Below are positions 9,858 through 33,601 of a DNA stretch of 64,000 nt, piece by piece; the stretch's first letter is position 1, and every line of letters starts with the position of its first letter. The translations under genes and the position numbers were made by a program. The notes below the pieces were generated by a model, which saw nothing but the letters and a program-made list of their open reading frames with translations, was not told the origin of the DNA and did no database searches. Source of the DNA: Kiritimatiellia bacterium (GTDB taxonomy: Bacteria; Verrucomicrobiota; Kiritimatiellia; RFP12; UBA3636); the NCBI GenBank assembly GCA_045589455.1, contig JAZNPC010000066.1, positions 127,227-191,226 of the forward strand. Reading direction: 5' to 3'.

Positions 9858-10044
9858 ATGTAATCCTTTGTTTCTGTATCTGCGGAATATTCTAACATAA
9901 GAAGAAAAAAGTCGCAAGACTTGAAAAAATTCTTCCATAATAGAATAATGTTAATTGATAGTTGTATAAAATATAAGTTTTTTGCTAATAAATGGCGATT
10001 TTAAAGGTAAAAGTGTTTATAATTAAAAAATAATTTTTAAGTGT

Positions 10045-11655: not shown

Positions 11656-11671
11656 TAAATTTTCTTGTGGA

Positions 11672-11739
11672 GCAAAAATTACCTCACTCAAGTTTATCTC
11701 GGGGTGCAAAAATTGCCTCACTCAAGTTTATCTTGGGGT
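11672..11739 (+). repeat. Tandem direct repeat, 2 x 34 nt (gcaaaaatt[a/g]cctcactcaagtttatct[c/t]ggggt).
   Basis: Two adjacent near-identical copies lie immediately 3' of the HuH-fusion gene, followed by the second GC palindrome. Confidence 0.7.
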
Positions 11740-11775
11740 GCGGGGGCGTCGTCCCCCGCCTTTCCCGCCTTCCCC
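11737..11775. repeat. GC-rich REP-like palindrome (gggtgcgggggcgtcgtcccccgcc), inverted copy of 11255..11285.
   Basis: The stem gcggggg/cccccgc is the reverse complement of the intragenic copy and is flanked by a CCGCC-rich tail. Confidence 0.6.
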
Positions 11776-11840
11776 GCCTCGGATGCGCCCAGATAGTTGG
11801 AGACTGTTGTATGTTGTATTGTTTTCCAAAATGTGAATAA

Positions 11841-11932
11841 TTTCCCCTAATCGCCAAAATCAAGATTAGGGGAAATTTTTTTAAGCCATAAAAAATTTCC
11901 CCTAAATTCAAAAAACGACTTTAGGGGAAATT
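11841..11932. repeat. Two tandem hairpins sharing the stem tttcccctaa/ttaggggaaa.
   Basis: Hairpin 1 is tttcccctaatcgccaaaatcaagattaggggaaa. Hairpin 2 is atttcccctaaattcaaaaaacgactttaggggaaat. Both are followed by T-runs. Confidence 0.55.
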
Positions 11933-11993
11933 TTATTGTTGTATTACCATGCGTAATTTTGTTATATTAAATGCTATAAAAAGGAGTATGGTC

Positions 11994-13424
11994 ATGTTTA
12001 TTGGTAGAGAAAATGCTTTGGATCAGTTAAATGCGCTGTTGCAAAAACAAACCGCATCGCTTGTTACTTGTAGAGGACGTCGACGAATCGGTAAGAGTAC
12101 TCTTATTGAGGTTTTTGCAGAACGCTCTAAAAGCAGATTTATTAAATTAGAGGGGCGTCGTCCAGAAAAAGGACTAACTAACAATGACGAACTTGCTACT
12201 TTTGCTAAACAACTTGCTAACCAAACATCGATAGAATCAACACCTCCATCCAACTGGTTGGATGCGTTTAGAAGAATTGATTCACAAATAAATGATTCTG
12301 AGCGCACAGTTGTCTTGCTCGATGAGGTATCGTGGATGGCATATTATGACAAAAGTTTTGCCTCTGACCTTAAAATGGCTTGGGATAATTTATTCAAAAA
12401 ACATAAAAAATTAATTTTTGTTGTTTGTGGTAGTGTCTCAACATGGATACGAGAAAATATTGTAGATAATGGTGCTTTCTTGGGAAGACGCTCCTTGGAT
12501 ATCGTTCTTAAAGAATTACCAATTTCAGATTGTGTTAAGTTTTGGGGTAAAGCAGCTTCGCGTATAGATGAAAGAGAAATTATAGATGTTCTTTCTGTCA
12601 CAGGCGGTGTTCCTAGATATCTAGAGGAGATAAATCCTTCGCTTTCAGCTTTTGAAAATATTAGACGTCTTTGTTTTATGCCTAATAGTATTCTAAGAAC
12701 AGATTTTGACGAAATGTTTAATGATGTCATAAGTAAAGAACAAGACTTTTCTGCTCAAGTTCTTAGATGTTTAGCGGATGGTTCTAAAACGGGTACGGAA
12801 ATTTCTAAAATGCTTCGAGTAGATAAGGGAGGTAGAGTTTCTGCTGCGTTAAGACGATTAGAAGAAGCAGGGCTTGTTTCTAGTGATGTATCTATCAATC
12901 CTGAGACAGGAAAACCATCAAGAGAAATTCGCTTTCGTTTAAGAGATAATTATTCTAGGTTTTATATAAAATATATAGAACCAATGAAAAGAATTATTGA
13001 TGATGGTGCATTTGATTGTGTTTCTTTAGAAGCATTAGAAGGAATAGAAACCGTACTAGGTTTAGCATTTGAAAATTTAGTAGTTAATAATTATAGAGAG
13101 CTAATCCCACTAATCAATTTAAAAGGGACTTTGGTTACATCTGCTGCACCATATAGACGTGTTGGTGGAAGCAAAAAAGGATGTCAAATAGATTTGCTTA
13201 TACAAACAAGAAGAACCATTTGTGTCGTTGAGATAAAGCGACGTCAAGAAATTGGCAGAGAAATAATAAATGAGGTAGACAATAAAATAAGAGCGATAGA
13301 ACGCCCTTCTGGAGTTTCGGCAAGGGCTGCACTTGTTTATTTAGGTCATCTTTCTCCAGTTGTTGAGGCCGATGGATATTTTGATTCGATTATTCATTTT
13401 AGAAAAGTACTTGGATTATCCTGA
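11994..13424 (+). CDS. ATP-binding protein of the archaeal-type ATPase family (PF01637-like with a DUF234-like C-terminus), STAND-like.
   Basis: The N-terminus FIGRENALDQL...GRRRIGKSTL has a Walker A motif, a Walker B motif (VVLLDEVSWM) and a C-terminal winged-helix-like region. ATG at 11994 lies 7 nt after AAGGAG; upstream ATGs at 11949 and 11988 have poorer spacing. Confidence 0.7.
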   Translation: MFIGRENALDQLNALLQKQTASLVTCRGRRRIGKSTLIEVFAERSKSRFIKLEGRRPEKGLTNNDELATFAKQLANQTSIESTPPSNWLDAFRRIDSQINDSERTVVLLDEVSWMAYYDKSFASDLKMAWDNLFKKHKKLIFVVCGSVSTWIRENIVDNGAFLGRRSLDIVLKELPISDCVKFWGKAASRIDEREIIDVLSVTGGVPRYLEEINPSLSAFENIRRLCFMPNSILRTDFDEMFNDVISKEQDFSAQVLRCLADGSKTGTEISKMLRVDKGGRVSAALRRLEEAGLVSSDVSINPETGKPSREIRFRLRDNYSRFYIKYIEPMKRIIDDGAFDCVSLEALEGIETVLGLAFENLVVNNYRELIPLINLKGTLVTSAAPYRRVGGSKKGCQIDLLIQTRRTICVVEIKRRQEIGREIINEVDNKIRAIERPSGVSARAALVYLGHLSPVVEADGYFDSIIHFRKVLGLS

Positions 13425-13490
13425 TTTTTTATTGATTTTATTATAGATATTGGGAGTATAGATTATCAAATTGCTTTAAAGGAATAGCCT

Positions 13491-14489
13491 ATGTCATTTT
13501 CTTTTAATCCTATTTTCACAAATTCTGCAGTATTTCCGCATTCAAAGCCAATTCGCATATATGGCGAAAGCATTGCTCCAGTCACTGTGTCATTTAATGG
13601 GGTAAAGCTAGAGGCTCAACCAGTTGATGGTAAGTGGTTAGTCACCCTGCCACCGATGGAATGTGGTGGACCCTATGAGCTTGTGGCAGAGTCAGCAGGG
13701 GAGTGCATTTGCCTAAAGGATATTTATGTTGGTGAGGTAATTCTAATTACAGGCCAATCAAATGCAGAAATGAAGCTTGAAAACACAAATGAGCCAAAGG
13801 AAAACTATGCTTCAGAAAATTTGCTTCGCCTTTTCACTATAGATTTTGAGCTCCATACTTGTGAGCATTTTAAAACAAAGGATGGCTGGCAAATCTGCGA
13901 AAAAGAAACTGCTAAGTATTGGACAGCAATAGGGTATTTTATTGGACAAAAGCTTTGTAAGGAACGCGGTGTTGCTGTTGGCATAATCGCATGCTATCAA
14001 GGAGCATCTACAATTCAAAGCTGGCTCGCATACGACCGTGCCACAAAGCCAGAGCTTTTTGTGCCAATGGAAGCACGACATCTTGATTCGATGCACGAAA
14101 CCTATGGGGCGTGGAATGCAGATGGATATTTATATGAAAAGATGATGACAAGACTTATCCCATATTCTCTATCAAGAGTAGTTTTTTATCAGGGAGAGTC
14201 TAATACATCAATGTCAGATGCACAAGTATATGATAAGCTACTGCTAGAATATTTTGATCAGCTTCGCACAGACTTTCAGGATGCAGAGCTTCCAATAACA
14301 ATTGTGCAGATTGCTAACTACATCTGGCGCAAGGATGAAGAATGGAAGGCAATCCAACGCGTGCAGGCCAAAATCCCAGAGCTTGCAAAAGGTGTTAATA
14401 CAGTCCCTTGTGCAGATATTTGTGAAGAAGATGATATTCACCCTCCGTCAAAGCGTGCACTTTCTGAACGCATTGTAGATAGCTTTTAA
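13491..14489 (+). CDS. Sialate O-acetylesterase family (SGNH-type carbohydrate esterase).
   Basis: An N-terminal beta-sandwich-like region (DGKWLVTLPPMECGGPYEL) is followed by the diagnostic ILITGQSNAE motif and a catalytic D...HP near the C-terminus. Confidence 0.7.
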   Translation: MSFSFNPIFTNSAVFPHSKPIRIYGESIAPVTVSFNGVKLEAQPVDGKWLVTLPPMECGGPYELVAESAGECICLKDIYVGEVILITGQSNAEMKLENTNEPKENYASENLLRLFTIDFELHTCEHFKTKDGWQICEKETAKYWTAIGYFIGQKLCKERGVAVGIIACYQGASTIQSWLAYDRATKPELFVPMEARHLDSMHETYGAWNADGYLYEKMMTRLIPYSLSRVVFYQGESNTSMSDAQVYDKLLLEYFDQLRTDFQDAELPITIVQIANYIWRKDEEWKAIQRVQAKIPELAKGVNTVPCADICEEDDIHPPSKRALSERIVDSF

Positions 14490-14521
14490 TCAATGATAAA
14501 AATAAATTGGAGATTTTACCT

Positions 14522-15064
14522 ATGACCATTTTTGAGAAAACACCTAGATTTTGTAAGCTGACAATTTCAAGCACAAGCAGTGTGACAGCAAAAACCTATT
14601 CAATAGTAGCCTTCAATGTTTTTGCTTTTGTATTTGGACAGCTATTAGCATTTGCAGGAGTGTTTTTAATTTTTATTGCAGCATTTATTGGTAAGCCGAT
14701 TTCTGATGTTATATTTTATGTGATTGCACTCATGCTGATTTCAACATTGTTTGGGCTTTATTTTATGTATTGCTTGCTCTTTAGTCCATCCATATCTTTT
14801 GATATGTTGAGAGGGACATTTTCTGTAAAGGGTAAGGGCTTTTTATCAAAGAAGCTTGTAGAAGGAAAGCTTTCTGAGGTTGAAGCAGTTCAAGTTGTGC
14901 CTGTATATATTGATAGCGTTGATTTAGCAACACCTTGGTATTCTATAACGCTTTCGGTATTGCAGCAAGAGGATATTACAATTTGTAGCTTTAAAAATAA
15001 ACATTCTGCAGAGAAGCTTGCAAGAAAGCTTGCAAGGAAGCTTGGCATACAATTATCTTGTTAA
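14522..15064 (+). CDS. Hypothetical small membrane protein.
   Basis: Two predicted TM helices plus a soluble tail. ATG at 14522 is preceded by GGAG; the ORF-track start at 14507 is a TTG. Confidence 0.4.
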   Translation: MTIFEKTPRFCKLTISSTSSVTAKTYSIVAFNVFAFVFGQLLAFAGVFLIFIAAFIGKPISDVIFYVIALMLISTLFGLYFMYCLLFSPSISFDMLRGTFSVKGKGFLSKKLVEGKLSEVEAVQVVPVYIDSVDLATPWYSITLSVLQQEDITICSFKNKHSAEKLARKLARKLGIQLSC

Positions 15065-15068
15065 AAAT

Positions 15069-15959
15069 ATGAGTATTAGAGAAACAAAAATTTGTCATGT
15101 TACATTTATAGGTGCAATAGTGAATATTGCACTATCGTTGGCTAAACTATGTGCTGGAATATTTGGTAATAGTACAGCAATGATAGCGGACGCAATTCAT
15201 TCTATCTCCGATCTAGCTACAGATGTTGCAGTTGTGGTTTTTGTAAGAGTGGCATCAAAGCCATCTGATGAGGATCATGATTTTGGACATGGAAAATACG
15301 AAACACTATCATCTATTTTGGTGGGACTTGCATTGTGTGGAGTTGGATTTGGTATTTTGAAGCATGGAGTAGTTGAAGTATCCAATATTATAAATGGAAG
15401 AGAGATTGCAGGTCCAAGTATTATTGCGTTTGTTGCTGCAATCGTTTCTATAGTTGCAAAGGAGTGGCTTTATAGATTTACCATTAAGCAAGGGAAGAAG
15501 CTTTCTAGCCCTGCAGTGATAGCAAATGCTTGGCATCATCGGTCAGACGCATTTTCTTCTATAGGTACGGCAATTGGTATCGGGGGAGCTATCGCATTGG
15601 GAGATAAGTGGAGTATCTTGGACCCAATAGCAGCGATAATAGTTAGTGTTGTTGTAATTAAAGCAGGAATTGAATTTGTGTTACCTGGAGTTAATGAGCT
15701 TATGGAGCATTCTCTTCCTAAGGAAATAGAAGATGAAATGCTTGCTATTATCAAAAGCAGCAGCCCAATAATTTGTGACCCACATAATTTACGTACACGA
15801 AGCATTGGTGCAAATTATGCGGTTGAGGTGCATATACGACTACCAGAGGATATGCCAGTGGTAGAGGCTCATGAATTAACAAAGAAAATAGAGCTAATGC
15901 TAAAGGAGCGCTTCGGTAAGCGAACACACATAATTGTTCATGTTGAGCCAATAAAGTAG
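15069..15959 (+). CDS. Cation diffusion facilitator (CDF) family metal efflux transporter.
   Basis: CDF signature NIALSLAKLCAGIFGNSTAMIADAIHSISD, six TM helices and a C-terminal cytoplasmic domain. ATG at 15069; the upstream start at 15018 is a TTG. Confidence 0.85.
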   Translation: MSIRETKICHVTFIGAIVNIALSLAKLCAGIFGNSTAMIADAIHSISDLATDVAVVVFVRVASKPSDEDHDFGHGKYETLSSILVGLALCGVGFGILKHGVVEVSNIINGREIAGPSIIAFVAAIVSIVAKEWLYRFTIKQGKKLSSPAVIANAWHHRSDAFSSIGTAIGIGGAIALGDKWSILDPIAAIIVSVVVIKAGIEFVLPGVNELMEHSLPKEIEDEMLAIIKSSSPIICDPHNLRTRSIGANYAVEVHIRLPEDMPVVEAHELTKKIELMLKERFGKRTHIIVHVEPIK

Positions 15960-16281: not shown

Positions 16282-19200
16282 ATGAAAAAGATTATATCGA
16301 TATTGTTTGCATTTGTTACCGTGTTGTCTATTGATGCTTTTGCTGCATGGACTATTGTTTCAGAGGGTTCAAATCCTCAGGTTACAGATGGTAATTGGGT
16401 GATCGAATTAAATTCAAAGTATAAAGCCAAGTTTGTATCTAAGGCTGATGGCGGAAGCACTGTTCTTGATATGTCAACCTTGAATAGCGACTTGGCTGCT
16501 GCTGGCTATTCGTATACATGTACTGAGTTTGATGCAAATGGCTTCCGAGGTAACGCTTATGCTATTCTAAAAACAGAGCTTACGGAAATTTATTTCCCAG
16601 ATGAGGTTACAAAAATCGGTCAGCAGTGTTTCCAAAATTGTAATGCCCTAGTAACAGTTGAGTTAGGAAGTAACTTCACCTCTTTTGCTAATACTCACGG
16701 CTTTTCACAGTGTCATTCATTAACGACATTATACACACGTGGAGAAGAAAAGGTTGTTGGTACAATTAAGCTTCCTGATGCGGTTACAACACTTCCAAAC
16801 TACACATTTGAAGCCTGTAAATCATATACTAACATGATTGCTAGAGGTGTAAAAAAAATTGGTCAGGCAACATTTTATCAAAATGGAGCAGTATGTAGCA
16901 TTGAGCTATCTCCAGAGTTATATTCTGTAACTAGTGGTAATAATAATGGAACAATGTATCAAAACTGGAACTTAACAAATTTTTATCCATCTGTTATGGC
17001 TTTAACAGATAATGTTGGAAATAGCTCCTTCCGTGAACTCCCTTTAAAGCACGGACTTGATTTTTCAAAATCAACCTTTACTGCTGTTGAAGAAAGTTCT
17101 TTTTATGGTATAGCATTGCCTAATGATAAAAAAATTATTTTGCCTTCAACACTGAACAACGTCGGCGCAAATGCATTTCGTCAGCAACAGAATGGCAGAA
17201 CGGAGTATGTAAATCTTCGTTTTCTTGGTGAGGTCCCTGTAACTTTGGGAACAGACTGCTTTACTCCACGTAATAGTGGCAGACATAATGTATTATATGT
17301 TGATGCAAAGAAGTGCACATCTTGGACAGCACAAAATTTCACTCCTCTAACAGAGGATATGAAGAGCGAAGCCTCTTATCCTGGAGAGAAGACACTTGGT
17401 AAGTCAACAATTGGTGTGAACCAAAGCGGCTGGTGGAACTGGCTTGTTCAGGAGGATCTTCCAAAGGGACCAACTGAGTGGAATATCGTTTCAGAAAATG
17501 ATGATGGCTCTATTACAATTTGTAATACTGTAGACACCTGGACCTTTAAGCTAATCCCAGATGGAAATGGTGCTTATCTTGTAAAATACGTTTCTGATGA
17601 GTTGGCTGCTGATGCAACTGTTGAGCTTGAGCTAGTAAAAATTTCTGATGACTTGGAAATTGAAATTGCAGGCTTGGCAGATGAAGCATTTAAGGGCGTG
17701 ACAAAGATTAGTAAGCTTATTCTCCCTGTAGGTGCAGATTATATGGGTGATTATGCTTTGGAAAATTGCACAAATCTTAAAGAGCTAATTCTTTCTTCCG
17801 GCTTTAATTATAATGAAGCAGGTAAGGGTGCATTCAAGGGCTGCTCAAGTCTAAGTATTGTAGGTCTTTCAACTCAATCAATTACTGCAGGTGTTGTTGT
17901 GCTTCCAGATAGTGTTACATCAATATCTGAAGAACTATTTGCAGGTTGCACAAGCATCACACAAGTTACTGGTAAGGGAGTTGCCACAATTGGTGCAAAT
18001 GCTTTTGCTAATGCTTCTGCTCTTGCACGTGTTGCATTCTCTAAGGATCTTGGTGCGCTAACCTTAGGTGAGGGATCATTCATGGGTACAGCACTTATTC
18101 AGACAATTGATTTAACACTAACACCAATGACAAAAATTCCAGCAAATGCATTTGCAAATTGCTCTGGAATTTCACTTGTTATTGTTCCTGCATCTGTAAC
18201 TGAAATCGGTGCTAATGCATTTGCTAATATGGCAGGTGGCGCAAATATCAGCTTTGCTGGTTCTGTTCCAACGCTTGGTGCAAATGCTCTAATGCCTTCA
18301 AGTGGTGCCGCAGGTTCTCGTTATGTTATCCGTGTAGAGGATGAGTATAAGGCATCATGGCAGGAAAATAACTTTACAGCTATTACAGATTCTATGATGG
18401 AGGAGTCTGATTATTATTCAAACTTCTATGTAGGACAAACTACTGCTGGTACAGACGGTACTGCAAACTGGATGTTCTGCAAAGATCCTTCAAAGACTTG
18501 GTGGATCAGTGGTGTTGGTACATATACACGCCTAGATAACAATCAGAAATTTTCTACTCAGACTGTAACTGATGGCACTTACATTATGCATGTAGTTAAA
18601 GACGGAGGAAAGCTATATCTTGCTCCAAGCGTTTGTGTTGCTGGCGGTGTTCTTGATATGTCAACATTGGATGTTGATATTGGTCTTGAGCCAGTGTCAC
18701 TACATGCAAGAGCTTTCTTTAAATTTGAAAATACACCTGCTGTTGTAAGACTGCCTGATAGTATGACATCTATCGGTTATCAAGCATTCCACGAAAATAA
18801 GAAAATTGTTGAGGTTGAACTAGGTGCTGGCATCACATCATTAGGTGATAGCCCATTTAGAGAGTGCGAGGCTTTCTCTACAATGTATCAGCGCGGAACA
18901 GCAGAGCGCATTGAGGGTCAGGTAAATATCCCTGCAACAGTAACATCTATTTCTGCTGGTGCAGAATTCTTTAATTGCGATGGCATTAAAGAGGTTATCG
19001 CTACTGGAGTAGTTGTTGTAGGTAATTCAACATTCTACGAGTGCAGCTATGTCACAAATATTGTTTTATCTCCTGATCTTTATGAATTTAAGGCAGGTGG
19101 ACAAGGTGCTTTCTATCAGTGTAAGTCGCTAAAAACAATTAGTCCAAATGAGATGAAGCTTGTAGCAACAGGCTCCGGAACCTTCCGTGAGTTACGTCTT

Positions 19201-19677
19201 TCCCATGGTTTGGATCTGTCTAAGAGTACATTCACATATGTTGGCGATAAGGCTTTCTATGCAACAAAGTGTACTGATGAAAATGGCTTTGCATGCCCAA
19301 TGGTAATGCCAAAGACTGTTACAAAACTAGATGGACAGGCATTCTGGGGCCAGAATGGAAATGGTAATCAGATTATCGTCTTCAAGGGTGATAAGCCAAC
19401 AAGCGTTCAATCAAACTCGTTAGATACAAATAATAATGGTCTGAATACTCTTGTTGTTGATGCTGAGGCATACCCAGCTTGGCTGGATGCTGGTGAGTTT
19501 ACACCTGCTTCAGAGCTTCCTGAGGCTGATGTTGCAAAGATTAATCTTCAGCTTAATTCAAATCCAAATTATCCTGGCGTAAAGCTTCTTGGTAAACTAT
19601 CAACAGGAACAGCTGGAAAATATCTAAACTGGATTGCTCAGCTTGAACAGCCTTTGACAATGATTATTATTAAATAA
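16282..19677 (+). CDS. Large secreted surface protein (1131 aa) with BspA-type LRR (LRR_5) modules and an internally duplicated two-domain architecture.
   Basis: Signal peptide MKKIISILFAFVTVLSIDAFA. Two homologous halves share VLDMSTL... and FRELxLxHGLDxSKSTFT... modules. LRR_5-like modules (e.g. GAFKGCSSL, ANAFANCS) are present. The C-terminal tail is ...EQPLTMIIIK. Confidence 0.85.
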   Translation: MKKIISILFAFVTVLSIDAFAAWTIVSEGSNPQVTDGNWVIELNSKYKAKFVSKADGGSTVLDMSTLNSDLAAAGYSYTCTEFDANGFRGNAYAILKTELTEIYFPDEVTKIGQQCFQNCNALVTVELGSNFTSFANTHGFSQCHSLTTLYTRGEEKVVGTIKLPDAVTTLPNYTFEACKSYTNMIARGVKKIGQATFYQNGAVCSIELSPELYSVTSGNNNGTMYQNWNLTNFYPSVMALTDNVGNSSFRELPLKHGLDFSKSTFTAVEESSFYGIALPNDKKIILPSTLNNVGANAFRQQQNGRTEYVNLRFLGEVPVTLGTDCFTPRNSGRHNVLYVDAKKCTSWTAQNFTPLTEDMKSEASYPGEKTLGKSTIGVNQSGWWNWLVQEDLPKGPTEWNIVSENDDGSITICNTVDTWTFKLIPDGNGAYLVKYVSDELAADATVELELVKISDDLEIEIAGLADEAFKGVTKISKLILPVGADYMGDYALENCTNLKELILSSGFNYNEAGKGAFKGCSSLSIVGLSTQSITAGVVVLPDSVTSISEELFAGCTSITQVTGKGVATIGANAFANASALARVAFSKDLGALTLGEGSFMGTALIQTIDLTLTPMTKIPANAFANCSGISLVIVPASVTEIGANAFANMAGGANISFAGSVPTLGANALMPSSGAAGSRYVIRVEDEYKASWQENNFTAITDSMMEESDYYSNFYVGQTTAGTDGTANWMFCKDPSKTWWISGVGTYTRLDNNQKFSTQTVTDGTYIMHVVKDGGKLYLAPSVCVAGGVLDMSTLDVDIGLEPVSLHARAFFKFENTPAVVRLPDSMTSIGYQAFHENKKIVEVELGAGITSLGDSPFRECEAFSTMYQRGTAERIEGQVNIPATVTSISAGAEFFNCDGIKEVIATGVVVVGNSTFYECSYVTNIVLSPDLYEFKAGGQGAFYQCKSLKTISPNEMKLVATGSGTFRELRLSHGLDLSKSTFTYVGDKAFYATKCTDENGFACPMVMPKTVTKLDGQAFWGQNGNGNQIIVFKGDKPTSVQSNSLDTNNNGLNTLVVDAEAYPAWLDAGEFTPASELPEADVAKINLQLNSNPNYPGVKLLGKLSTGTAGKYLNWIAQLEQPLTMIIIK

Positions 19678-19703
19678 AAGTTTACCATTTTAAGTAAAGA
19701 AGA

Positions 19704-19744
19704 ATGCTCCTGCTACATAGAATTGTGGTAGGGGCATTTTTTTT
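19704..19744 (+). terminator. Rho-independent terminator after the 1131-aa gene.
   Basis: An imperfect 14-bp stem atgctcctgctaca...tgtggtaggggcat is followed by T8. Confidence 0.55.
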
Positions 19745-19892
19745 ACACTATTTGTCTTGTGGAGAGATTTGACGCTAGAGATTGCGTCAATTTGGATTCA
19801 CGAACACCAATTGGGCATGCTATTGCACGCATGCCTATGGCGTGAACAAGTGTGATGCGTGAGCTATCATGTGCACAACAAATCCATCTTCT

Positions 19893-19933
19893 CTATTTTA
19901 GAAAAATGTAAAAAAGTTAAAAATCTAAAATAG
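19893..19933 (+). repeat. 41-bp repeat, copy 1 (ctattttagaaaaatgtaaaaaagttaaaaatctaaaatag), with 9-bp terminal inverted repeats.
   Basis: Identical to copy 3 at 21253..21293. The termini ctattttag/ctaaaatag are reverse complements. Confidence 0.8.
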
Positions 19934-19967
19934 GTTGTTGATTTTCTGCTTACAAAATGATATATTT

Positions 19968-20008
19968 CTATTTTAGAAAAACACAAAAAAGTTAAAAATC
20001 TAAAATAG
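19968..20008 (+). repeat. 41-bp repeat, copy 2 (variant ...aaaaacacaaaaaag...), 8 nt upstream of the ATPase ATG.
   Basis: 38 of 41 positions are identical to copies 1 and 3. Confidence 0.8.
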
Positions 20009-20016
20009 AGACACCT

Positions 20017-21249
20017 ATGAAAATTAAAAGAGACTTTTATTTGACACAGCTAATTGATCGAAAGCATAATCGGATGATCAAAATAGTGAGTGGTATTAGG
20101 CGATGTGGCAAATCATATTTACTGTCTGAATTATTTACTCAACATTTACTAGATGAAGGTGTTGATAGGCATCATATCATACATATTGATTTAGATACTA
20201 GAGACAATTTAGAATATAGGAATCCAGATGCATGTAATCAATATGTAAAATCATTAATTAAGGATGATAACATGTACTATCTTCTTTTGGACGAGGTCCA
20301 ATTGATGGAGGACTTTGTTAGTGTTTTAAATGGCTTTTTGCATATTAAAAATCTTGATGTTTATGTAACAGGAAGCAATTCAAAGTTTTTATCATCTGAT
20401 ATTGTCACAGAATTTAGGGGACGCGGGGATGAAATAAGGGTATATCCATTAAGCTTTGCAGAAATTTATCCTATTTATGACAACAATTGGGAGAAAGCCT
20501 GGGGTGATTACACTGTTTATGGTGGAATTCCTTTAGTTTTTACCTATCAAAAGGAAGAAGACAAGGTTAAGTATTTGAAAAATTTGTTTAAAGAAACCTA
20601 TTTAAAGGATATTATTGAGAGAAATAGAATTAAAAGCACAGAGGAACTAGAGGAATTATTAAATATATTAGCATCTAACATAGGTTCTTTGGTTAATCCC
20701 CAAAAATTGACCGCAACCTTTAAAAGTGTAAAAAAAGTAGACTTATCAGCTCCAACAATAAAGCAATATTTAGATTATTTACAGGATGCATTTTTTGTTA
20801 ATAAAGTACTTAGGTATAATATTAAGGGGAAGAAATATATTAATACACCATTTAAGTGTTATTTTACAGATATTGGATTAAGGAATACTAGCCTTTATTT
20901 CCGCCAAATAGAAGAGACACATATTATGGAGAACATCATATATAATGAATTACAAATTCGTGGTTATAATGTAGATGTTGGGGAGGTGAATATAGGCGGC
21001 AACAGAATGACAGAGGTAGATTTTATAGCAAATCTTGGCAACAAGAGGTATTATATTCAATCTGTATTATCTATGCCAACAGTAGAAAAAATTATGCAGG
21101 AAAAGAAATCCTTACTAGGGATAAGAGACGGCTTTAAGAAAATAATTATTACAAAAGAGAATATATTGCGAGCATATCAGGATGAGGATGGAATAACCAT
21201 TATGAGTTTAAAAGAATTTCTCTTAAATAAGAACAGTTTAGATATATAG
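20017..21249 (+). CDS. AAA_14/DUF4143-family ATP-binding protein.
   Basis: Walker A GIRRCGKSYLL, LLLDEVQLM, the sensor region TGSNSKFL...RGRGDEIRVYPLSFAEI, and a C-terminal DUF4143-like EVDFIANLG. Confidence 0.85.
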   Translation: MKIKRDFYLTQLIDRKHNRMIKIVSGIRRCGKSYLLSELFTQHLLDEGVDRHHIIHIDLDTRDNLEYRNPDACNQYVKSLIKDDNMYYLLLDEVQLMEDFVSVLNGFLHIKNLDVYVTGSNSKFLSSDIVTEFRGRGDEIRVYPLSFAEIYPIYDNNWEKAWGDYTVYGGIPLVFTYQKEEDKVKYLKNLFKETYLKDIIERNRIKSTEELEELLNILASNIGSLVNPQKLTATFKSVKKVDLSAPTIKQYLDYLQDAFFVNKVLRYNIKGKKYINTPFKCYFTDIGLRNTSLYFRQIEETHIMENIIYNELQIRGYNVDVGEVNIGGNRMTEVDFIANLGNKRYYIQSVLSMPTVEKIMQEKKSLLGIRDGFKKIIITKENILRAYQDEDGITIMSLKEFLLNKNSLDI

Positions 21250-21252
21250 AAT

Positions 21253-21293
21253 CTATTTTAGAAAAATGTAAAAAAGTTAAAAATCTAAAATAG
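21253..21293 (+). repeat. 41-bp repeat, copy 3, immediately 3' of the ATPase stop codon.
   Basis: Exact copy of 19893..19933. Confidence 0.8.
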
Positions 21294-21525
21294 GGAACAT
21301 TACTCCCCGCAGAACTTAGTACTCCACATTCGAGTATCCCTTAGCTTCCCTCTGAATATATATTTTTTGTGAGTCTGCAAAAAAAATGCAAATAACACAT
21401 TTTTTATTGTAGAAAGAATAGCACTAGTCTTGACAAATATGCAAGATAGATGATATATTTATTATTAAATATATAAGTGGTTAAACCATTGATATATAGA
21501 ATTTTGTAATCAAATAAGGACTTTT

Positions 21526-22791
21526 ATGAAAAAATCATTGTTCGTTTTGACAATCGGTGCTTTAACAGCACTATGCTTCGCAGATCCAGTTTGGACAGAA
21601 ACAGCAGATTCAACATCCTCAAATCGCAGGGCTACGGACGGAAATTTCGTTGTTGGTTGGGATGGCACAGGTGGTTCAGCATGGCGGCTATATTATGTTT
21701 CTCATGATGCTTCTGTGAGCACTGTGCTTGATATGACAACACTTTGCTCTGATATGGATGCAGCAGGAATAAAATATCCTAATACAGTAAATGGATCTGG
21801 ATTTGCTAATAAATCTGGAATTACAAGAATTGTTTTCCCTGAGGAGATTATTTATTTTCATCAAAATGCTTTCTCATCTATGTCAGACCTAGAGTCTGTT
21901 GTAATTTCTTCTAAGACAACTTGGTCGCCTAGCTCAAATCCTAAGCAGTGCTTCAGTAGTTGTACTTCTCTTTCTATGATTACACCTCGTGGTGTTGCAG
22001 AAACGAATGGTGTTGTATATCTTCCTGAGGGTTGTACCGCAATCCCAAACAATATGTTTCAGTTTTGTTATGATGCACCAATTAAGCATGTTATAGCTCC
22101 TTGGGTTGTTTCTATTAAGGAAGCTGCATTTTACACCATGTCTAAACTTGAAACAATAACAGTTTCACCAGATATACATACTATTGGTGGTAATTACCCT
22201 ATAAGCGACTGTGCCTCTCTTACAAAAATCATAGCAGGAGATAACTCTTTTAGAAACTTATCTTCATTGGATGGTAGTCAAGTTTTTAAAAATTGTAAAA
22301 ATTTTTCTATGCCATTAAATTTTTCAAAGTCAACTTTTACCTCTATCCCATATAGATGTTTTTGGGGTACAACTGACAAGGTGCCTGAAATACATTTGCC
22401 AGCTACATTAACTTATGTTGGGAAGAATGCTTTTCGTATGGACAATACTATAATGCAAAATTTATTCTATTTCTATGGCATGCCACCAACCTTTGAGTGT
22501 GATGAGGATAATATATTTGGTAAGCATGGATGTTCTTCTTCTACTCACCCAAGGCGTATTGTTTTTATTAAAGCTGAATACAAGACGGAATGGTTAACAA
22601 TGTTTGGGGATAAGTTAGCTCCTATAACAGATGCAGATAAGGCAAGAGACGATTATCCAACAAAGTCTGAAGTTGTAAAGGTTGTAGGTGCAAACGTTTT
22701 AGGTGTATCTACATATGAATCTCGCTATTGCCCATACTATGTTTGCACATTTGTTGAGCCAAATATGCCTCTATCAATCATAATAAAATAA
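21526..22791 (+). CDS. Secreted protein (421 aa), paralogue of the N-terminal half of the 1131-aa surface protein.
   Basis: Signal peptide MKKSLFVLTIGALTALCFA. Shared VLDMTTLCSDM and SKSTFTSI modules. C-terminal tail ...EPNMPLSIIIK. Confidence 0.85.
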   Translation: MKKSLFVLTIGALTALCFADPVWTETADSTSSNRRATDGNFVVGWDGTGGSAWRLYYVSHDASVSTVLDMTTLCSDMDAAGIKYPNTVNGSGFANKSGITRIVFPEEIIYFHQNAFSSMSDLESVVISSKTTWSPSSNPKQCFSSCTSLSMITPRGVAETNGVVYLPEGCTAIPNNMFQFCYDAPIKHVIAPWVVSIKEAAFYTMSKLETITVSPDIHTIGGNYPISDCASLTKIIAGDNSFRNLSSLDGSQVFKNCKNFSMPLNFSKSTFTSIPYRCFWGTTDKVPEIHLPATLTYVGKNAFRMDNTIMQNLFYFYGMPPTFECDEDNIFGKHGCSSSTHPRRIVFIKAEYKTEWLTMFGDKLAPITDADKARDDYPTKSEVVKVVGANVLGVSTYESRYCPYYVCTFVEPNMPLSIIIK

Positions 22792-22851
22792 ATCGCCTTA
22801 AACAAAGTAAATTAACATATGAATTACTTGTTTTAAAGAGGACTATGTAAT

Positions 22852-24111
22852 ATGAAAAAATCATTGTTTGTTTTGACAATCGGTGCTTTAACAGCACTAT
22901 GCTTTGCAGATCCAGTTTGGGTAGAAACAGCAGATTCAACATCCTCAAAGCGTAGAGCTACTGACGGAAATTTCGTTGTTGGTTGGGAAGGCGGAAGACT
23001 GTATTATGTCTCTCATGATTCATCAGTAGGAACAGTGCTTGATATGACAACACTTTGCTCTGATATGGAAGCAGCAGCAATAGGATATCCAACAATTGTT
23101 AATACGGAAGGATTTCTCAGTAAATCTGGAATTACAAGAATTGTATTCCCAGAGGAGATTGTTACTTTTTATAAGAAAGCCTGCTCATCTATGCCAGACC
23201 TAGAGTCTGTTGTGATTTCTTCCAAGACTGCGTGGGATAAAAAATCATATCCACAGCAGTGTTTTTCTTCTTGTACAAATTTATGTTCAATTACACCTCG
23301 TGGTGTTGCAGAAACAAATGGTGTTGTATATCTTCCAGAGGGTTGCACAAGTATTGCAAACAATATGCTTCAGTCATGTAATAATGCACCGATAAAGCAT
23401 ATTATTGCTCCATGGGCTACAGCTATTACGGAAGCAGCTTTTCAATATTGCTATAATCTTGAAACAGTAACGGTTTCAAAGGATTTGCAAACTATAGAAT
23501 CTTTTGCATTTCAGAATTGCTCATCTTTTACAAATCTTATAGCAGGGGATAATTCTTTTGAGAAGCTTTCATCAATGGGAGGATCAAGATCCTTTCAAGG
23601 ATGTTCTAAGTTAGCTCAAAAGTTTGATTTTTCAAAGTCAACATTTACTTCTATAGGATCTCAGTTTATGTATGGAGCAGACAATGTTTCAGAGATTCAT
23701 TTGCCAGCGACATTAACTCAAGTATCAGGACAAGCTTTTCGTGCAGATACCCGACCAGTGCAGCGCTTGATTTATTTCTATGGTGCTCCTCCAACATTTA
23801 ATGATGGTGAAAAGCTTGCTTTAGGTAGTACAAATAATAATCCAACGCCTAGATTTATTGTATTTATCAAAGATGAGTATAAAGAGGAATGGTTGGAATT
23901 ATTTGCAACAGATTCCTTTAATGAAATAACCGATGCAGATAAGGCAAGAGACGATTATCCAACAAAGTCAGAGGTCGTAAAAGTCTCTGCAAATCGCGTT
24001 TTAGGTACTTCAACATTTATGGCTCACTTTAATAATGGAAATAAACTTTCTACATACTATGTTTGCACATTTGTTGAGCCAAACCTACCTCTTACAATTA
24101 TAATTAAATAA
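22852..24111 (+). CDS. Secreted protein (419 aa), tandem paralogue of 21526..22791.
   Basis: The first ~70 nt are nearly identical to the previous gene, giving the same signal peptide. Protein identity is ~60%. C-terminal tail ...EPNLPLTIIIK. Confidence 0.85.
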   Translation: MKKSLFVLTIGALTALCFADPVWVETADSTSSKRRATDGNFVVGWEGGRLYYVSHDSSVGTVLDMTTLCSDMEAAAIGYPTIVNTEGFLSKSGITRIVFPEEIVTFYKKACSSMPDLESVVISSKTAWDKKSYPQQCFSSCTNLCSITPRGVAETNGVVYLPEGCTSIANNMLQSCNNAPIKHIIAPWATAITEAAFQYCYNLETVTVSKDLQTIESFAFQNCSSFTNLIAGDNSFEKLSSMGGSRSFQGCSKLAQKFDFSKSTFTSIGSQFMYGADNVSEIHLPATLTQVSGQAFRADTRPVQRLIYFYGAPPTFNDGEKLALGSTNNNPTPRFIVFIKDEYKEEWLELFATDSFNEITDADKARDDYPTKSEVVKVSANRVLGTSTFMAHFNNGNKLSTYYVCTFVEPNLPLTIIIK

Positions 24112-24153
24112 AACAAAATTATTAAAAGATAAATTACCCATAGGAAATAGAAA

Positions 24154-27100
24154 ATGAAAAGAGCACAAAATATATTTCTAGCATTTTTTGCTTTATTTCT
24201 GATGGCACAAGAAGCAAATGCTACTGTGTATAGACCAGGTTTCCAACAGTTCAGATATAGCTGTGCTAAGGACAAGGAAGCTGATTTAACAGTTACCTAT
24301 GATTCTATTACAGATGCAAATAAACGTGATATTACAGCCACAACACTCATGGCAAGCATCAATGGCACAGGTAGTGTTGTTAATCCACTTACTGGTAAAA
24401 CTTGGAATTGGTCAGACAATACCACCTTTGGCTATGAATCACAAATTTGGTTGGAGCCAGGTACTTATACCTTCTGGGGACGCTATGATGATGGTGGTGC
24501 AGTTCTTATCAATGGTGATGTGATTTATACACATGGTGCAAAATCAGGTTATAATGAATCTCCAGCTTCAGGAGATTTTGTTGTTACAAAAGCTGGTTGG
24601 TATGATTTCCGTGGCTATGTATGGGACTGGTCTGGTGGTAAGAACCCTATGGGAGAAGCTAAGAGTGCTATCCAAATGAAAAAGGATGGCGGAGCCTGGA
24701 TTATCAATATGGAGGGTGTTCCTGCTCGTTATGCAACAGGTGTAGAATATTTAGAAATCCAAAAAGCTGTTGCTTCTGAAACAGAAGGTTGCTTTGATGT
24801 GACTGTTGCTGCAACATTTCCAAGTGGAACAACGGCTCAGGTTTGGGCATTAGCTACAAATGGTAATGTTGGTCATTTACCTAAAGATAAATGGAGTTCT
24901 TCTTCTGAAGCACAGTCTATAACTAGTGATGGAACAACACAAATTTTAACTTTTACAGTCGATGCTTCTGCTCTCGGAAATCCATATGTTGTTGCATATT
25001 CAGAAAATGTTTATACAGATATTTTGACAGAGGAATCTGCAGCAAATCCAGATTTTAATTTAGAAAAAGCATATTCTTCACTTGTTCCTGTGGCTACCGC
25101 TGCAGCAGGCTATATAATAATTGATGAAGTTAAGTATTTAGATGTTGATATATTTACAAATATTGATAGTTTTGGTGTGGGAGCAACTGGTGTTGAGGGA
25201 ACAATTGAGGTTAGTACTTCAGTAGATTTCTCTAATCCTATAACTGTAGAATTAGGCTCTTTAGCTTTTGGTGCTTCACTACATACTATCTCGGGTTTAA
25301 CAACGAATGTAACCTATAATATTCGCCTTGTGATGGTCAATAGCGAAGGAGCAACAACATATACAGATCCTGTAGAGTTTACAACATTGAATCCTCAACC
25401 TGCGATTATTACTTCTACGCTTTATACCACAGAGTATAATGTGTTTAAACCAACTGTAATACTTGAGTCTTATGGTGCTGGTTCTACCACAGCAACAGTC
25501 AGCTATCAAGTTTCTACAACAGAGGATTTCTCTGATATTGTAATAGAACAAGAAGTTCCAAATGCTATGCTTGGGCAAGGGGTAGAGATTAAAATTAACA
25601 AATTAGATGACGGTTCACCACTTGTTGGAGCAAGTACTTACTACTTCCGCCCAGTTGTTGTTAATGAGTGGGGGCTTGTCACCTATGGTGATACAATTAA
25701 AGCACAATTGGCTGATACTATTATTACCTATAATGGATTTGGGTATAATAAAACCGATGCTGGTTTAGAGCTTGTTGCCTATGTCACATACGTTCTAGAA
25801 GATGCAATCTTTGATGCAACCCTAGAAATCAACAATGTTGTAGTTAAAGAGTGGAATGGTATAAATGCTGCAACTACCTTAGCATATACTATAGAAAATG
25901 ATTCACTAAAATCTCAAAATACTGCAAAACTAACATTTGATATCACAACAAATAATGGCCAAACCGTTGAAGTGCTGGAGGAAGAGTTTATCAAGAATCA
26001 GCAACGTGTTATGGCTTTTAGCTCAATTGCAGAATTGGATAATAATGATGCAAGCTATACAATAGCTAAGATTGGTGATGTGATTAAGATGCCTAAGCTC
26101 ATCGACGATAACGAAAATTATGTTGCTGGTGATACTCGCGTGGCAAGGCTCTTAGAAGATGGTAATTCTATTGAAATTATCGGTCATGGATTCACTAAGA
26201 TTACAAAGCGCATAGTTGATCCTGCCTCTGGAAATATAACGCTAGAGCGTGGTCTTGTGGTTGTTCCTCCAACTCCAGCAGGTGAGGGCAATGTTTATAT
26301 GCTAATCATTCCTCAGGCAGATAGATATTGGGATACAACTCACTGGAAAAACTTAACCAATCCAGAGGCTGGTGGCTATCCTTCTAAGAAGGATGATATC
26401 GCTATGATTTTTATGTATGGCACAAAGAGTATGTTTGTTAATACTGATATTACAGTAGGTCAGATTTGGATTGGTGTAGAAGGAGGAAACTTCTACTTAC
26501 GAGGACAACAAGGCGGCGAAGGAGCTAAAACAGTCACATTTGAGCGTAGCGATAAAGAGATGCCTCTTTTCAGAATTTCTGGTTTAGAGCAGACAGATGG
26601 CGTTGTTCTTCCTTGGGCATTGCCACACTTTTATATTCAACCAAGCTTAAAAACCCCTCTAATATTTGACTGTTCAAATGATTTATTATTTGATGCAGGA
26701 TGTCCTTTTGATCCTTTAAGTAGAGATGATGTAACAGGTAAGTCTCTTCAGAGAGTTTCATTAGAAACAGGATTTATTTTAAATATACCAAAGGGAGCAA
26801 GGGTTGTTTTTGATGGAACAAATGCAGGCAATAGAGATGGTGATACCCAAAGAGGTAATGTAACCTTCCGTTTTTCGAGTAACGCTTTTGTTGGAGAGGG
26901 AACAGTTGATTATAATGGACCAAGTAGTGTGTGCTTTACTCCAGATGCATCAGATTTTAATGGTGTATTTGATTTGACCCACATGAATAAGTACGATTCC
27001 TTTGGAATTGGAGATCGTGGTGGTGGTGTATACATGCTATTCTGGGAGGGCAGTCAACCAGGAGCAAATGCTTCTCAGCGTCTTGAGGGGCATATTGGCT

Positions 27101-28419
27101 TAGGGTCTTCTTCTAATGTTTATGCTTGGAATGATTCCTTTGGTATTATTAACTGTGGATCGGCTCACGGATATGGTTCATATGGCCCAGTGCCTAATCA
27201 CTTTGCCCCTAAAGCATTCTATTCGCGCGGTGGTGGTATAAATATTAATAATCAGAATAATGGAGATTGGGCAGCTAAGGGAATTCTAGATTCTATCTAT
27301 GCTTCTGAGCAACTTGTTCTTGAGGATGGTTTATTGTGCGCAAATTCAGAACCAACAGATGCGGCTAATTATCCAACAAATTCTCTATTATTTGCAGAAG
27401 TAAGCAATCCAGACGGAAAAGGCGTTTTTGCTGTTAATTTCAGGCATATTAGAGAGTCAAGCAACCAATCTACTGTTACTAATGGTGTTTCAAAATATAA
27501 GGGAAGAGTTCAAATTGGAAACTTCCAAGATATAGCAATTGGTGAAGGCTCTTCAGAAAATGCAAAAATTGTCCCTTGGATAGTAAATGCTATTGGTGGT
27601 TCACAATTTTGGTATTTTGCAAAAGCAGACGAGGATGGATTCTTGCTTCCAGCAGGTTATCCTTCAACAGAAAACCTAAGAAATTTCGCTTCAACTGCCA
27701 ATGCATACTGCGTAAATGGAAACTCCTTGAATCTATTGCAAGATAAGACTGTTAATTCTCTAGTTCTAAAGGGGCTTACTGGAGATAGGTCAACATTGGG
27801 TGAGGGTATGACTGCAACAATTACCTCTGGTGGTCTAATCTTTACTTCTGATATTTCTCATATTGATTCAGAAGAGGTTTATAATGCTGGAACACGAGGT
27901 AATCTAGTATTCCCTAATCGAGCATTTATCTTCGCAGGTATAAAGTCAACAACTTCACCATCAGAGATTTGGGCAAATATTTCTGCACCAAAGGGTATGA
28001 CAATTACTTACCCTGGAACATTGTTGCTTGGTGGTGATCAGACTGGTATTGATAAGGAAATACATATTTCCAATAGTAATCTAATTCTTGGTAAGAATAC
28101 AACTCCAGCAGTGATTGATGTGCCAATTTCTATGCACTCTGGTGGTTCTTCATTAACTATTGCTAATGCAGGTTCTTTGTGCAAGCAGGAGATTGTATGT
28201 ACAACAGCAACTCGCCAGTTCCCTAAAATCAATGTTGCCTTTGATGGAACAGAAAATTGCCAAAAGCTAACAATTGATGGCGAAACTCTACCAAGAGGTA
28301 CTTATGGTGCAACAGGCTCAGGAGCTGAATTTATCAACGATAAAATATTTACTGGTGTAGGTATATTGAAGGTCTTGAGCGACGATTTACTACAGCCTAC
28401 AATAATTTTTATTAGGTAA
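24154..28419 (+). CDS. Giant secreted protein (1421 aa) with an N-terminal PA14-like domain and repeated beta-sandwich-like domains.
   Basis: Signal peptide MKRAQNIFLAFFALFLMAQEANA. The PA14-like motif is GTYTFWGRYDDGGAVLINGDVIYTH...AGWYDFRGYVWDWSGG. The body is long and rich in S, T, G and N. C-terminal tail ...LLQPTIIFIR. Confidence 0.85.
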   Translation: MKRAQNIFLAFFALFLMAQEANATVYRPGFQQFRYSCAKDKEADLTVTYDSITDANKRDITATTLMASINGTGSVVNPLTGKTWNWSDNTTFGYESQIWLEPGTYTFWGRYDDGGAVLINGDVIYTHGAKSGYNESPASGDFVVTKAGWYDFRGYVWDWSGGKNPMGEAKSAIQMKKDGGAWIINMEGVPARYATGVEYLEIQKAVASETEGCFDVTVAATFPSGTTAQVWALATNGNVGHLPKDKWSSSSEAQSITSDGTTQILTFTVDASALGNPYVVAYSENVYTDILTEESAANPDFNLEKAYSSLVPVATAAAGYIIIDEVKYLDVDIFTNIDSFGVGATGVEGTIEVSTSVDFSNPITVELGSLAFGASLHTISGLTTNVTYNIRLVMVNSEGATTYTDPVEFTTLNPQPAIITSTLYTTEYNVFKPTVILESYGAGSTTATVSYQVSTTEDFSDIVIEQEVPNAMLGQGVEIKINKLDDGSPLVGASTYYFRPVVVNEWGLVTYGDTIKAQLADTIITYNGFGYNKTDAGLELVAYVTYVLEDAIFDATLEINNVVVKEWNGINAATTLAYTIENDSLKSQNTAKLTFDITTNNGQTVEVLEEEFIKNQQRVMAFSSIAELDNNDASYTIAKIGDVIKMPKLIDDNENYVAGDTRVARLLEDGNSIEIIGHGFTKITKRIVDPASGNITLERGLVVVPPTPAGEGNVYMLIIPQADRYWDTTHWKNLTNPEAGGYPSKKDDIAMIFMYGTKSMFVNTDITVGQIWIGVEGGNFYLRGQQGGEGAKTVTFERSDKEMPLFRISGLEQTDGVVLPWALPHFYIQPSLKTPLIFDCSNDLLFDAGCPFDPLSRDDVTGKSLQRVSLETGFILNIPKGARVVFDGTNAGNRDGDTQRGNVTFRFSSNAFVGEGTVDYNGPSSVCFTPDASDFNGVFDLTHMNKYDSFGIGDRGGGVYMLFWEGSQPGANASQRLEGHIGLGSSSNVYAWNDSFGIINCGSAHGYGSYGPVPNHFAPKAFYSRGGGININNQNNGDWAAKGILDSIYASEQLVLEDGLLCANSEPTDAANYPTNSLLFAEVSNPDGKGVFAVNFRHIRESSNQSTVTNGVSKYKGRVQIGNFQDIAIGEGSSENAKIVPWIVNAIGGSQFWYFAKADEDGFLLPAGYPSTENLRNFASTANAYCVNGNSLNLLQDKTVNSLVLKGLTGDRSTLGEGMTATITSGGLIFTSDISHIDSEEVYNAGTRGNLVFPNRAFIFAGIKSTTSPSEIWANISAPKGMTITYPGTLLLGGDQTGIDKEIHISNSNLILGKNTTPAVIDVPISMHSGGSSLTIANAGSLCKQEIVCTTATRQFPKINVAFDGTENCQKLTIDGETLPRGTYGATGSGAEFINDKIFTGVGILKVLSDDLLQPTIIFIR

Positions 28420-28583
28420 GTAGTAGGTAAGAGTAAAGTTTATAATTAAAGCAGCTATGGACACATAAAGTCTGTAGCTGCTTTTATATTTAATATCGTA
28501 ATTATGCTAAAATATGTAGCGAAATGAGTTTTTTCATAAAAAATGCTTGCGTTTTTACCCAGTTATATGAGAAAATTAACGCC

Positions 28584-33548: not shown

Positions 33549-33601
33549 TGTAGTTTTATGATATAATCAAAAGGTAAAATTAATTAAGAAAGAAAACTTA
33601 T

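Follow-up and report, generated by a model that had tools for sequence, protein, structure and literature searches.

Our analysis of a 64,000-nucleotide stretch of DNA from a Kiritimatiellia bacterium (GenBank assembly GCA_045589455.1, contig JAZNPC010000066.1, positions 127,227 to 191,226 of the forward strand; this whole stretch is called the window below) revealed a short C-terminal tail that is shared by four secreted proteins of 1131, 421, 419 and 1421 amino acids (aa) and by many proteins of related loci. The tail is a heptapeptide of fixed length with the general motif [GP]-[TLMF]-Φ-Φ-Φ-Φ-[RK]-COOH, where Φ is a hydrophobic residue. It is portable, specific to the C-terminus, tied to exported proteins and alternates with PEP-CTERM in homologous proteins. 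On balance, and with modest confidence, we regard it as a portable sorting or retention tag which lies outside any protein fold and is not tripartite, that is, not composed of a motif, a transmembrane (TM) helix and a basic cluster. An earlier reading of the window, made from the sequence alone, had proposed an undescribed C-terminal sorting or anchor signal; the idea of a signal survived all tests run, while the step from a signal to sorting or anchoring is one that we infer. The motif appears to be undescribed so far; no model of Pfam or NCBIfam (June 2026 release) matched the tail at E≤10 in searches with whole proteins and isolated tails, and full-text literature searches returned no description of it.

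The four open reading frames (ORFs) and their endings, summarised by the sequence-only reading as P-[LT]-x-I-I-[IF]-[KR], were confirmed. All lie on the plus strand and are predicted to carry Sec-type signal peptides (SPs). PF13306 repeats together with a leucine-rich repeat (LRR) solenoid fold, which define the BspA type, were found, among the four, in the three shorter proteins only, in agreement with the BspA-LRR modules expected in the 1131-aa protein. These three LRR_5 proteins are paralogues as had been supposed, and the 419-aa and 421-aa proteins are 64% identical. In contrast, the 1421-aa protein (the giant) is not a fourth paralogue: it shows no detectable similarity to the LRR proteins (best BLASTP E-value 0.3, to the 1131-aa protein) and lacks the VLDM[ST]TL and SKSTFT motifs. 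The giant has no Pfam match even at E≤10, and the PA14 domain that had been assigned to it (PF07691) was found neither at E≤0.01 nor at E≤10. Its C-terminal part is β-rich and bears a ‘GTYGATGSGA..F.G.G.L.V’ module, here called the GTYG module. Two further SP-bearing LRR_5 proteins of the window (36565-37476, 303 aa; 54936-59591, 1551 aa) are tail-less, and thus the tail is not simply a feature of LRR proteins. As LRR proteins without the tail, they would be natural controls for whether tailed proteins localise differently.

The general motif was derived from 189 unique tails, whose selection required K/R at position -1, a hydrophobic residue at both -2 and -4, and three or more hydrophobic residues out of five. 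Position -7, which was not a selection criterion, is G in 59% and P in 26% of the tails (85% G/P, against a G+P background of about 13% by our own estimate), and the last G/P stands exactly seven residues from the end in 160 of the 189. At -6, T (39%), L (21%), M (19%) and F (8%) predominate; 76% of the tails are hydrophobic at -5 and 79% at -3, and the selected basic residue at -1 is R in 75% and K in 25%. The hydrophobic run comprises one to six residues, mostly three to five, and is followed by a single K/R and the stop codon. Upstream of the tail lies a short, flexible and variable linker, often acidic with Pro or Gly and with many instances of ‘EP’ (for example VEPNMPLSIIIK, AAVEPAKGLTIVVR and TVEPTAGMYLIIR). 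The pattern P[LT].II[IF][KR]$ suggested by the sequence-only reading is too narrow as a general motif.

The tail is conserved over large evolutionary distances. Among 91 database relatives of the 421-aa protein, nearly all full-length sequences (40-93% identity), including those from GC-rich genomes, end in [E]-x-x-[PG]-[GT]-[TM]-Φ4-[KR], for example REAAPGMIIVVR and REAAPGTIVLIK, and a few end in ...STIICIF or ...STCLIIL. Orthologues of the 1131-aa protein in other strains end in PLTMIIVR, PLTMIIIR or PATMIIIR. The C-terminal 521 aa of the giant have 17 relatives (28-58% identity), all of which kept the tail, 14 with K/R as the last residue and three ending in IIL; the C-terminal consensus of this family is ‘...GTYGATGSGA.fIDD.HF.G.G.L.V..DDl..P.vI.I[KR]’. 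SP-bearing LRR proteins with tail variants that lack the basic end (...PPGLAIVIL, ...ADSTIICIF) were also observed at several loci (L006:11333-12892, L001:11454-12185, L002/L003:9968-11305).

Moreover, the tail is carried by otherwise unrelated proteins. In the window and related loci the carriers include LRR_5, Laminin_G_3, Beta_helix, Pel9A-like beta-helix and Gly_rich_2 proteins and several proteins without a Pfam domain, among them a 4736-aa giant. When the last 15 aa were removed, 67 tail ORFs fell into nine groups unrelated by BLAST; seven of these have G/P at -7 and the remaining two have G at -8. The association with export, which the sequence-only reading had set as a check, was measured on 162 non-redundant ORFs of at least 150 aa from the window and related loci with a crude SP rule: 26 ORFs had both tail and SP, eight a tail without SP, 21 an SP without tail and 107 neither (Fisher p = 7e-11). 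Most of the eight are ORFs cut at the end of a locus, ORFs with missed SPs or ORFs in which the SP lies internally. The last case applies to long ORFs resembling fusions with extracytoplasmic function (ECF) sigma factors, which were rejected as SP-less tail proteins because the long ORF still contains the complete SP of the LRR gene. In the same 162 ORFs, the strict heptapeptide pattern occurs at 18 C-termini and at five of 82,985 internal positions, an enrichment of about 1800-fold.

One finding that had been named in advance as fatal to a signal, a tail common on cytoplasmic proteins, was not obtained; look-alikes occur at chance level only and none has G/P at -7. In the window we treated two proteins without G/P at -7 as such chance look-alikes, a HAD hydrolase (33584-34423) with a Φ-rich ending and K, and a TPR protein (8868-9950, minus strand). 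The TPR protein has an SP and ends in ...ETNLNIVIK, and since TPR domains may bind free C-terminal peptides, it is also a possible carrier or reader.

That the endings arose by chance, by recent duplication or as a by-product of a DNA element at the 3′ ends of genes would fit the close relationship of two of the four genes, and their codons are AT-rich. Chance is contradicted by the enrichment described above, and duplication, the second finding named in advance as fatal, by the persistence of the tail at 40% identity, in GC-rich homologues and on at least nine unrelated families. The DNA element was rejected: the four tails of the window are encoded by different synonymous codons and the DNA downstream of them is unrelated, so that the constraint acts on the peptide. 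We consider the probability of these explanations negligible and regard them as effectively excluded.

The constraint on the peptide is one of length, hydrophobicity, β-propensity and a basic end and not of exact residues. Between near-identical strains, K/R swaps are common and I, L, V and F replace one another freely. A sister strain encodes an orthologue with 96.2% identity to the giant over 1046 aa; its tail reads TILLLK (L002:15655-15672) in place of TIIFIR; four of six residues changed, each conservatively, and the tail is a hot spot of substitution. By analogy, this pattern of constraint resembles that of signal-peptide-like signals.

Two further lines of evidence, besides the enrichment given above, tie the tail to the true C-terminus. 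First, the 1131-aa protein, which had been described as an internal duplication, holds three LRR modules (about 30% identity, aligned to the 421-aa protein); the number was thus wrong, and the accompanying observation that only the terminal module carries the tail is correct. The terminal module ends in NWIAQLEQP-LTMIIIK, and NWLVQEDLPKG at the end of the first module is the counterpart of the stretch directly preceding the terminal tail. Since both internal modules are tail-less, the tail is added only at the true C-terminus. Second, we used the last 85 aa of the giant family as a profile for an exhaustive search, which returned 1595 cluster representatives with GTYG modules at E≤1e-3. A tail-like stretch follows the module in one of 79 internal copies and in 92 of 117 terminal copies.

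The C-termini of 160 sequences (143 representatives newly returned by this search and the 17 giant relatives mentioned above) were inspected. The tail with K/R stands at the end of 93, about 25 have an equivalent tail whose final residue differs (Q, L, F, Y, E, H) and four end in ...GFSMVFRP. Carriers with a different last domain are still tailed (P0176, ...GVKIILR; P0177, ...GGTIMILR; P0191, ...PLVIYLR). Three of the 160 end in a canonical PEP-CTERM (P0109, P0182 and P0250), which in P0109 and P0250 directly follows the GTYG module, as it does in P0310, P0317 and P0331. None of the 162 ORFs of the tail-bearing loci has a PEP-CTERM-like ending, and neither an exosortase gene nor a PEP-CTERM protein was found in the related loci of about 20 kb each.

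Alternatively, the tail could be a functionless remnant, a PEP-CTERM truncated after the loss of exosortase. The absence of PEP-CTERM proteins from tail-bearing loci would agree with such an origin, as would the Pro, often within ‘EP’, before the hydrophobic run, which is found in PEP-CTERM and in tails such as the first two examples of the linker given above. Random truncation, in contrast, would leave variable lengths and endings, whereas the tails agree in length, in G/P at -7 and in the basic end from family to family and over deep divergence. A remnant, against which the evidence of purifying constraint also speaks, is therefore very improbable, and we count it too as effectively excluded.

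The GTYG module itself (‘C.KLYvDG…GTYGATGSGA..IDD.HF.G.G.L.V’) is often repeated within large proteins, in up to 13 copies. No Pfam model describes it, which makes it a candidate for a new domain family of giant surface proteins of the PVC type; with about 1600 cluster representatives it deserves a family definition. Proteins with internal GTYG modules also show a second recurrent ending, ...[KG]-x-[FL]-[FLA]-R-[VLIA]-x(2-6)-P/Q, for example PKGFLRAAIAEP, GSVFFRVKQ and NKLFARILVTTSNP (P0183, P0184, P0190, P0194, P0215, P0231, P0238, P0239, P0244 and others). It could represent a further signal or the terminal strand of a different C-terminal domain.

In the predicted structures of two unrelated proteins, both otherwise modelled with confidence, the tail is not part of the fold. 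The AlphaFold2 (AF2) model of the 421-aa protein, based on an alignment of 53 sequences, has a mean pLDDT of 89.4; the last strand of the fold spans residues 404-409, and residues 410-421 are coil with a pLDDT of about 61 falling to 51. In the model of the last 372 aa of the giant (18 sequences, pLDDT 88) the last strand spans residues 355-358 and the final 12 residues are coil with a pLDDT of 60 falling to 49. For these two families we therefore rejected the idea that the tail completes the fold of its own protein as a final strand. In Foldseek searches the LRR model matched LRR ‘cell surface proteins’ of gut bacteria such as 4gt6, 4fs7 and PcpA, and the C-terminal part of the giant showed only insignificant likeness to beta-helix and autotransporter passengers.

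A β-strand that packs against another chain, by strand exchange or as a cross-β zipper, and so builds multimers or a surface lattice instead of acting as a sorting signal, would escape monomer models, since these are blind to packing between chains. The tail is rich in β-branched residues in an alternating pattern, with polar residues tolerated at -3 and -5, and in most cases a β-strand and a G/P turn precede it, as in a hairpin; furthermore, many carriers are LRR proteins, and concave LRR sheets are generally known to bind extended peptides. Oligomerisation is nevertheless unlikely in our view, though credible: it would have to explain one heptapeptide on nine unrelated folds, a tail left unplaced in both confident monomer models, and the substitution of the tail by PEP-CTERM, a sorting signal, in homologues. 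Moreover, a quick turnover of residues in which composition alone is kept would be unusual for a specific packing interface.

In the examined neighbourhoods of the tail genes we found no recurrent candidate for the dedicated protease or sortase-like partner that the sequence-only reading had suggested looking for. The lack of a partner gene would suit a direct anchor in lipid or lipopolysaccharide (LPS), in which the greasy pentapeptide inserts into the outer membrane or binds the acyl chains of lipid A and K/R pairs with phosphates, with no protein partner at all. Four to six hydrophobic residues and one basic residue do resemble a surfactant, and the constraint seen on composition and not on sequence agrees with such an anchor. 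We consider such an anchor distinctly unlikely, because unspecific partitioning would hardly explain so strict a length and a G/P at -7, a chain entering from its N-terminal side would bury the charged end, and the tail is probably too short to hold proteins of 1000-4700 aa stably.

A degron or removable pro-peptide in the periplasm, read by an S41/Prc-type or other protease for turnover or to keep adhesins inactive until export, would also depend on the true C-terminus and on the exposure that the models predict, and tail-specific proteases are generally known to recognise apolar free C-termini. Prc-type proteases, in contrast, prefer a small uncharged last residue over K/R, and homologues with PEP-CTERM in place of the tail speak for localisation and not for degradation. 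No S41 gene was seen beside the islands and a Peptidase_C69 gene only once, and a degron appears improbable to us.

Returning to the tag that we favour, we infer a role in sorting or surface retention in which a factor of the envelope would read the tail as an extended strand. The carrier would be exported by Sec and its SP cleaved, as the predicted SPs suggest, and the folded passenger would then expose the tail, as in the AF2 models. The envelope factor could bind the tail as an extended β-strand, with the basic end and the free carboxylate fixing the register; a register set in this way would account for the constant distance of seven residues from G/P to the end. The factor might then hand the protein on for passage through the outer membrane or hold it at the surface, and cleavage at G/P is a conceivable part of this step. 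The tag would thereby do the job that PEP-CTERM and exosortase do in relatives. Since the tag has no membrane-spanning segment, a different, non-intramembrane reader is to be expected.

Several observations weigh against this interpretation. In about 20% of homologous tails the last residue is Q, L, F, Y, E or H instead of K/R, and one subfamily has ...FRP at its end, so that the basic residue and the free carboxylate are preferred and not obligatory. The coil predicted by AF2 is compatible with a tail that packs in an oligomer. The short hydrophobic run rules out the known sortase-type mechanisms, which leaves the proposed reader hypothetical, and no peptidase, Omp85 or sortase-like gene recurs in the neighbourhoods of the tail loci. 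Furthermore, our sample of loci is biased towards islands of tail genes, and the taxonomic range of the tail rests on few named records.

The features of the gene row are listed in the table below. The four tail genes had been read as strictly consecutive, whereas an AAA_14/DUF4143 ATPase gene separates the first from the second; it keeps this position in the related strains L011-L013 and is probably not part of the tail system.

Table. Genes, tails and modules of the tail-bearing gene row (window coordinates)
Feature	Position	Strand	Remarks
1131-aa secreted BspA-type LRR protein	16282..19677	+	SP aa 1-21; LRR_5 E 6e-72; ends ...EQPLTMIIIK*
End of internal LRR module 1 of the 1131-aa protein (NWLVQEDLPKG)	17437..17469	+	tail-less
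End of internal LRR module 2 of the 1131-aa protein (NWMFCKDPSKT)	18466..18498	+	tail-less
Tail PLTMIIIK of the 1131-aa protein	19651..19674	+	P at -8
AAA_14/DUF4143 ATPase gene	20017..21249	+	between first and second tail genes; neither tail nor SP
421-aa secreted LRR_5 protein	21526..22791	+	SP aa 1-19; LRR_5 E 7e-20; ends ...EPNMPLSIIIK*
Heptapeptide tail PLSIIIK of the 421-aa protein	22768..22788	+	
419-aa secreted LRR_5 paralogue	22852..24111	+	LRR_5 E 7e-20; ends ...EPNLPLTIIIK*
Heptapeptide tail PLTIIIK of the 419-aa protein	24088..24108	+	synonymous codons unlike those of the neighbouring paralogue
1421-aa secreted giant	24154..28419	+	SP aa 1-23; ends ...LLQPTIIFIR*
GTYG module of the giant	28162..28395	+	widespread unannotated domain (alignment, profile search)
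Heptapeptide tail PTIIFIR of the giant	28396..28416	+	
Terminator-like stem-loop closing the gene row	28448..28484	+	

The DNA of the window is 93-98% identical to contigs of metagenome-assembled genomes of Kiritimatiellae from the ruminant gut, including RGIG4692 (roe deer rectum), a bin labelled ‘uncultured Verrucomicrobia’ and ENA metagenome contigs; an exact look-up of the 421-aa protein returned no identical record. Among these closely similar strains the island 21526-28419 varies (L003, L011-L013, L002). Some strains have a single gene of this size class (422 aa) where the window has two, and lack the giant; in L002 the giant is split into two ORFs (11335-12534 and 12535-15675). The carriers are adhesin-like (BspA-LRR, LamG, beta-helix, Gly-rich) and lie in strain-variable islands, as would suit a ruminant-gut Kiritimatiellae bacterium with a variable surface coat.

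The surroundings of the islands yielded several further observations. AAA-ATPase genes lie in or beside the islands of two lineages, AAA_14+DUF4143 in the window (20017-21249, and 34838-36100 on the minus strand) and AAA-ATPase_like+PDDEXK_9 elsewhere (L017:8165-9745), and may relate to island plasticity. An SP-bearing Peptidase_C69 gene stands among tail-bearing LRR genes in one lineage only (L017:11467-12642). Just upstream of the island the window encodes an IS200-like Y1 transposase and an ATPase_2/HTH gene (10582-11655 and 11925-13424), and farther upstream a Sigma70_r2 gene that overlaps a Ser/Thr protein kinase gene (3152-4916). In the long ORFs mentioned above, an ECF-type sigma factor is joined to a tail-bearing LRR protein (L005:1216-3294, L005:7292-9475, L007:7711-9891; P0052, P0067, P0079, P0083): a sigma factor, one TM segment, a Ser/Thr-rich linker and an LRR body with intact SP follow one another in frame without a stop codon. 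These ORFs may represent genuine membrane-tethered sigma/LRR fusions, or else a regulator gene with read-through into its target. A separate Sigma70_r2 gene lies just upstream on the opposite strand in L010.

There is a realistic chance that the tag works by a mechanism new to bacteria. If the interpretation is true, a helix-less tag of seven residues, interchangeable with PEP-CTERM and present on dozens of unrelated secreted proteins per genome, would imply a different way of sorting or tethering surface proteins in diderms. The tag could also provide a simple marker of the surface proteome, strain-variable adhesin islands included, for abundant but uncultured bacteria of the herbivore gut, and it might be used for surface display if its reader were found.

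Comparison with known systems shows where the tail stands apart. Model scans and motif comparison agreed with the earlier statement that it matches neither LPXTG nor PEP-CTERM nor the C-terminal domain (CTD) of type IX secretion. PEP-CTERM resembles the tail in its setting: it also occupies the extreme C-terminus of SP-bearing proteins in diderms, with many unrelated carriers per genome, has a Pro, often E-P, before a hydrophobic run with a basic end, and takes the identical place after the GTYG module. PEP-CTERM has, in contrast, a run of about 20 residues and an Arg cluster, whereas the tail has no TM helix and a single basic residue. The tails do not conserve the P-E-P signature; their G/P at -7 is frequently preceded by E-P at a distance of a few residues, and neither PF07589 nor TIGR02595 matched tails or whole proteins at E≤10. 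Since the hydrophobic run is too short for a membrane, an intramembrane exosortase could not reach the tail. Haft (2023) recognised tripartite sorting domains by their C-terminal location, several copies per genome, SPs and otherwise unrelated carriers, together with at least three invariant signature residues, a hydrophobic region of TM length and two to five basic residues (10.1101/2023.06.07.544157). Compared with this group (LPXTG, GlyGly-CTERM, MYXO-CTERM, PGF-CTERM and others), the tail agrees in location, multiplicity, SPs and unrelated carriers and differs in having no invariant signature of three or more residues, no TM helix and no basic cluster; the motif, TM segment and basic tail of LPXTG/sortase substrates are all absent. 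As the tail cannot span a membrane, it cannot work like the signals of sortase, exosortase or rhombosortase. To our knowledge, and folded domains such as the type IX CTD aside, all small C-terminal sorting signals described so far in prokaryotes combine a motif, a TM helix and a basic cluster and are handled by sortases or intramembrane enzymes.

The type IX CTD likewise acts at the C-terminus of adhesin-like SP-bearing proteins, BspA-type LRR proteins included, and its last strand tends to end in hydrophobic residues and K. The CTD is a folded β-sandwich of about 70-100 aa, whereas the tail amounts to about seven shared residues in predicted coil behind unrelated upstream sequence; Por_Secre_tail and the other Pfam and NCBIfam models had no match to it in tail proteins. 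The β-signal of outer membrane proteins (OMPs), Φ-x-Φ-x-Y-x-F at the C-terminus in bacteria and Po-x-G-x-x-Hy-x-Hy in mitochondria, suggests another lead: G(-7)-x-x-Φ(-4)-x-Φ(-2) fits G-x-x-Hy-x-Hy, and some tail variants end in F. The carriers, in contrast, are LRR solenoids or β-rich rods and not barrels, and their ends are mostly R/K and not aromatic. The eukaryotic PTS1 (-SKL) and KDEL tags consist of a few residues, require a free C-terminus, direct unrelated cargo and are read by receptors; they differ in domain of life, compartment and chemistry and serve as an analogy only. In a bolder reading, which we put forward tentatively, the tail may be the first very short export or surface-retention signal of bacteria to be read by a receptor at a free C-terminus, having replaced PEP-CTERM and exosortase in gut Kiritimatiellae and Lentisphaerae. 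Functionally, such a signal would correspond to tags of the PTS1/KDEL type or amount to a ‘β-signal for non-barrel proteins’, acting through a reader in the outer membrane or periplasm.

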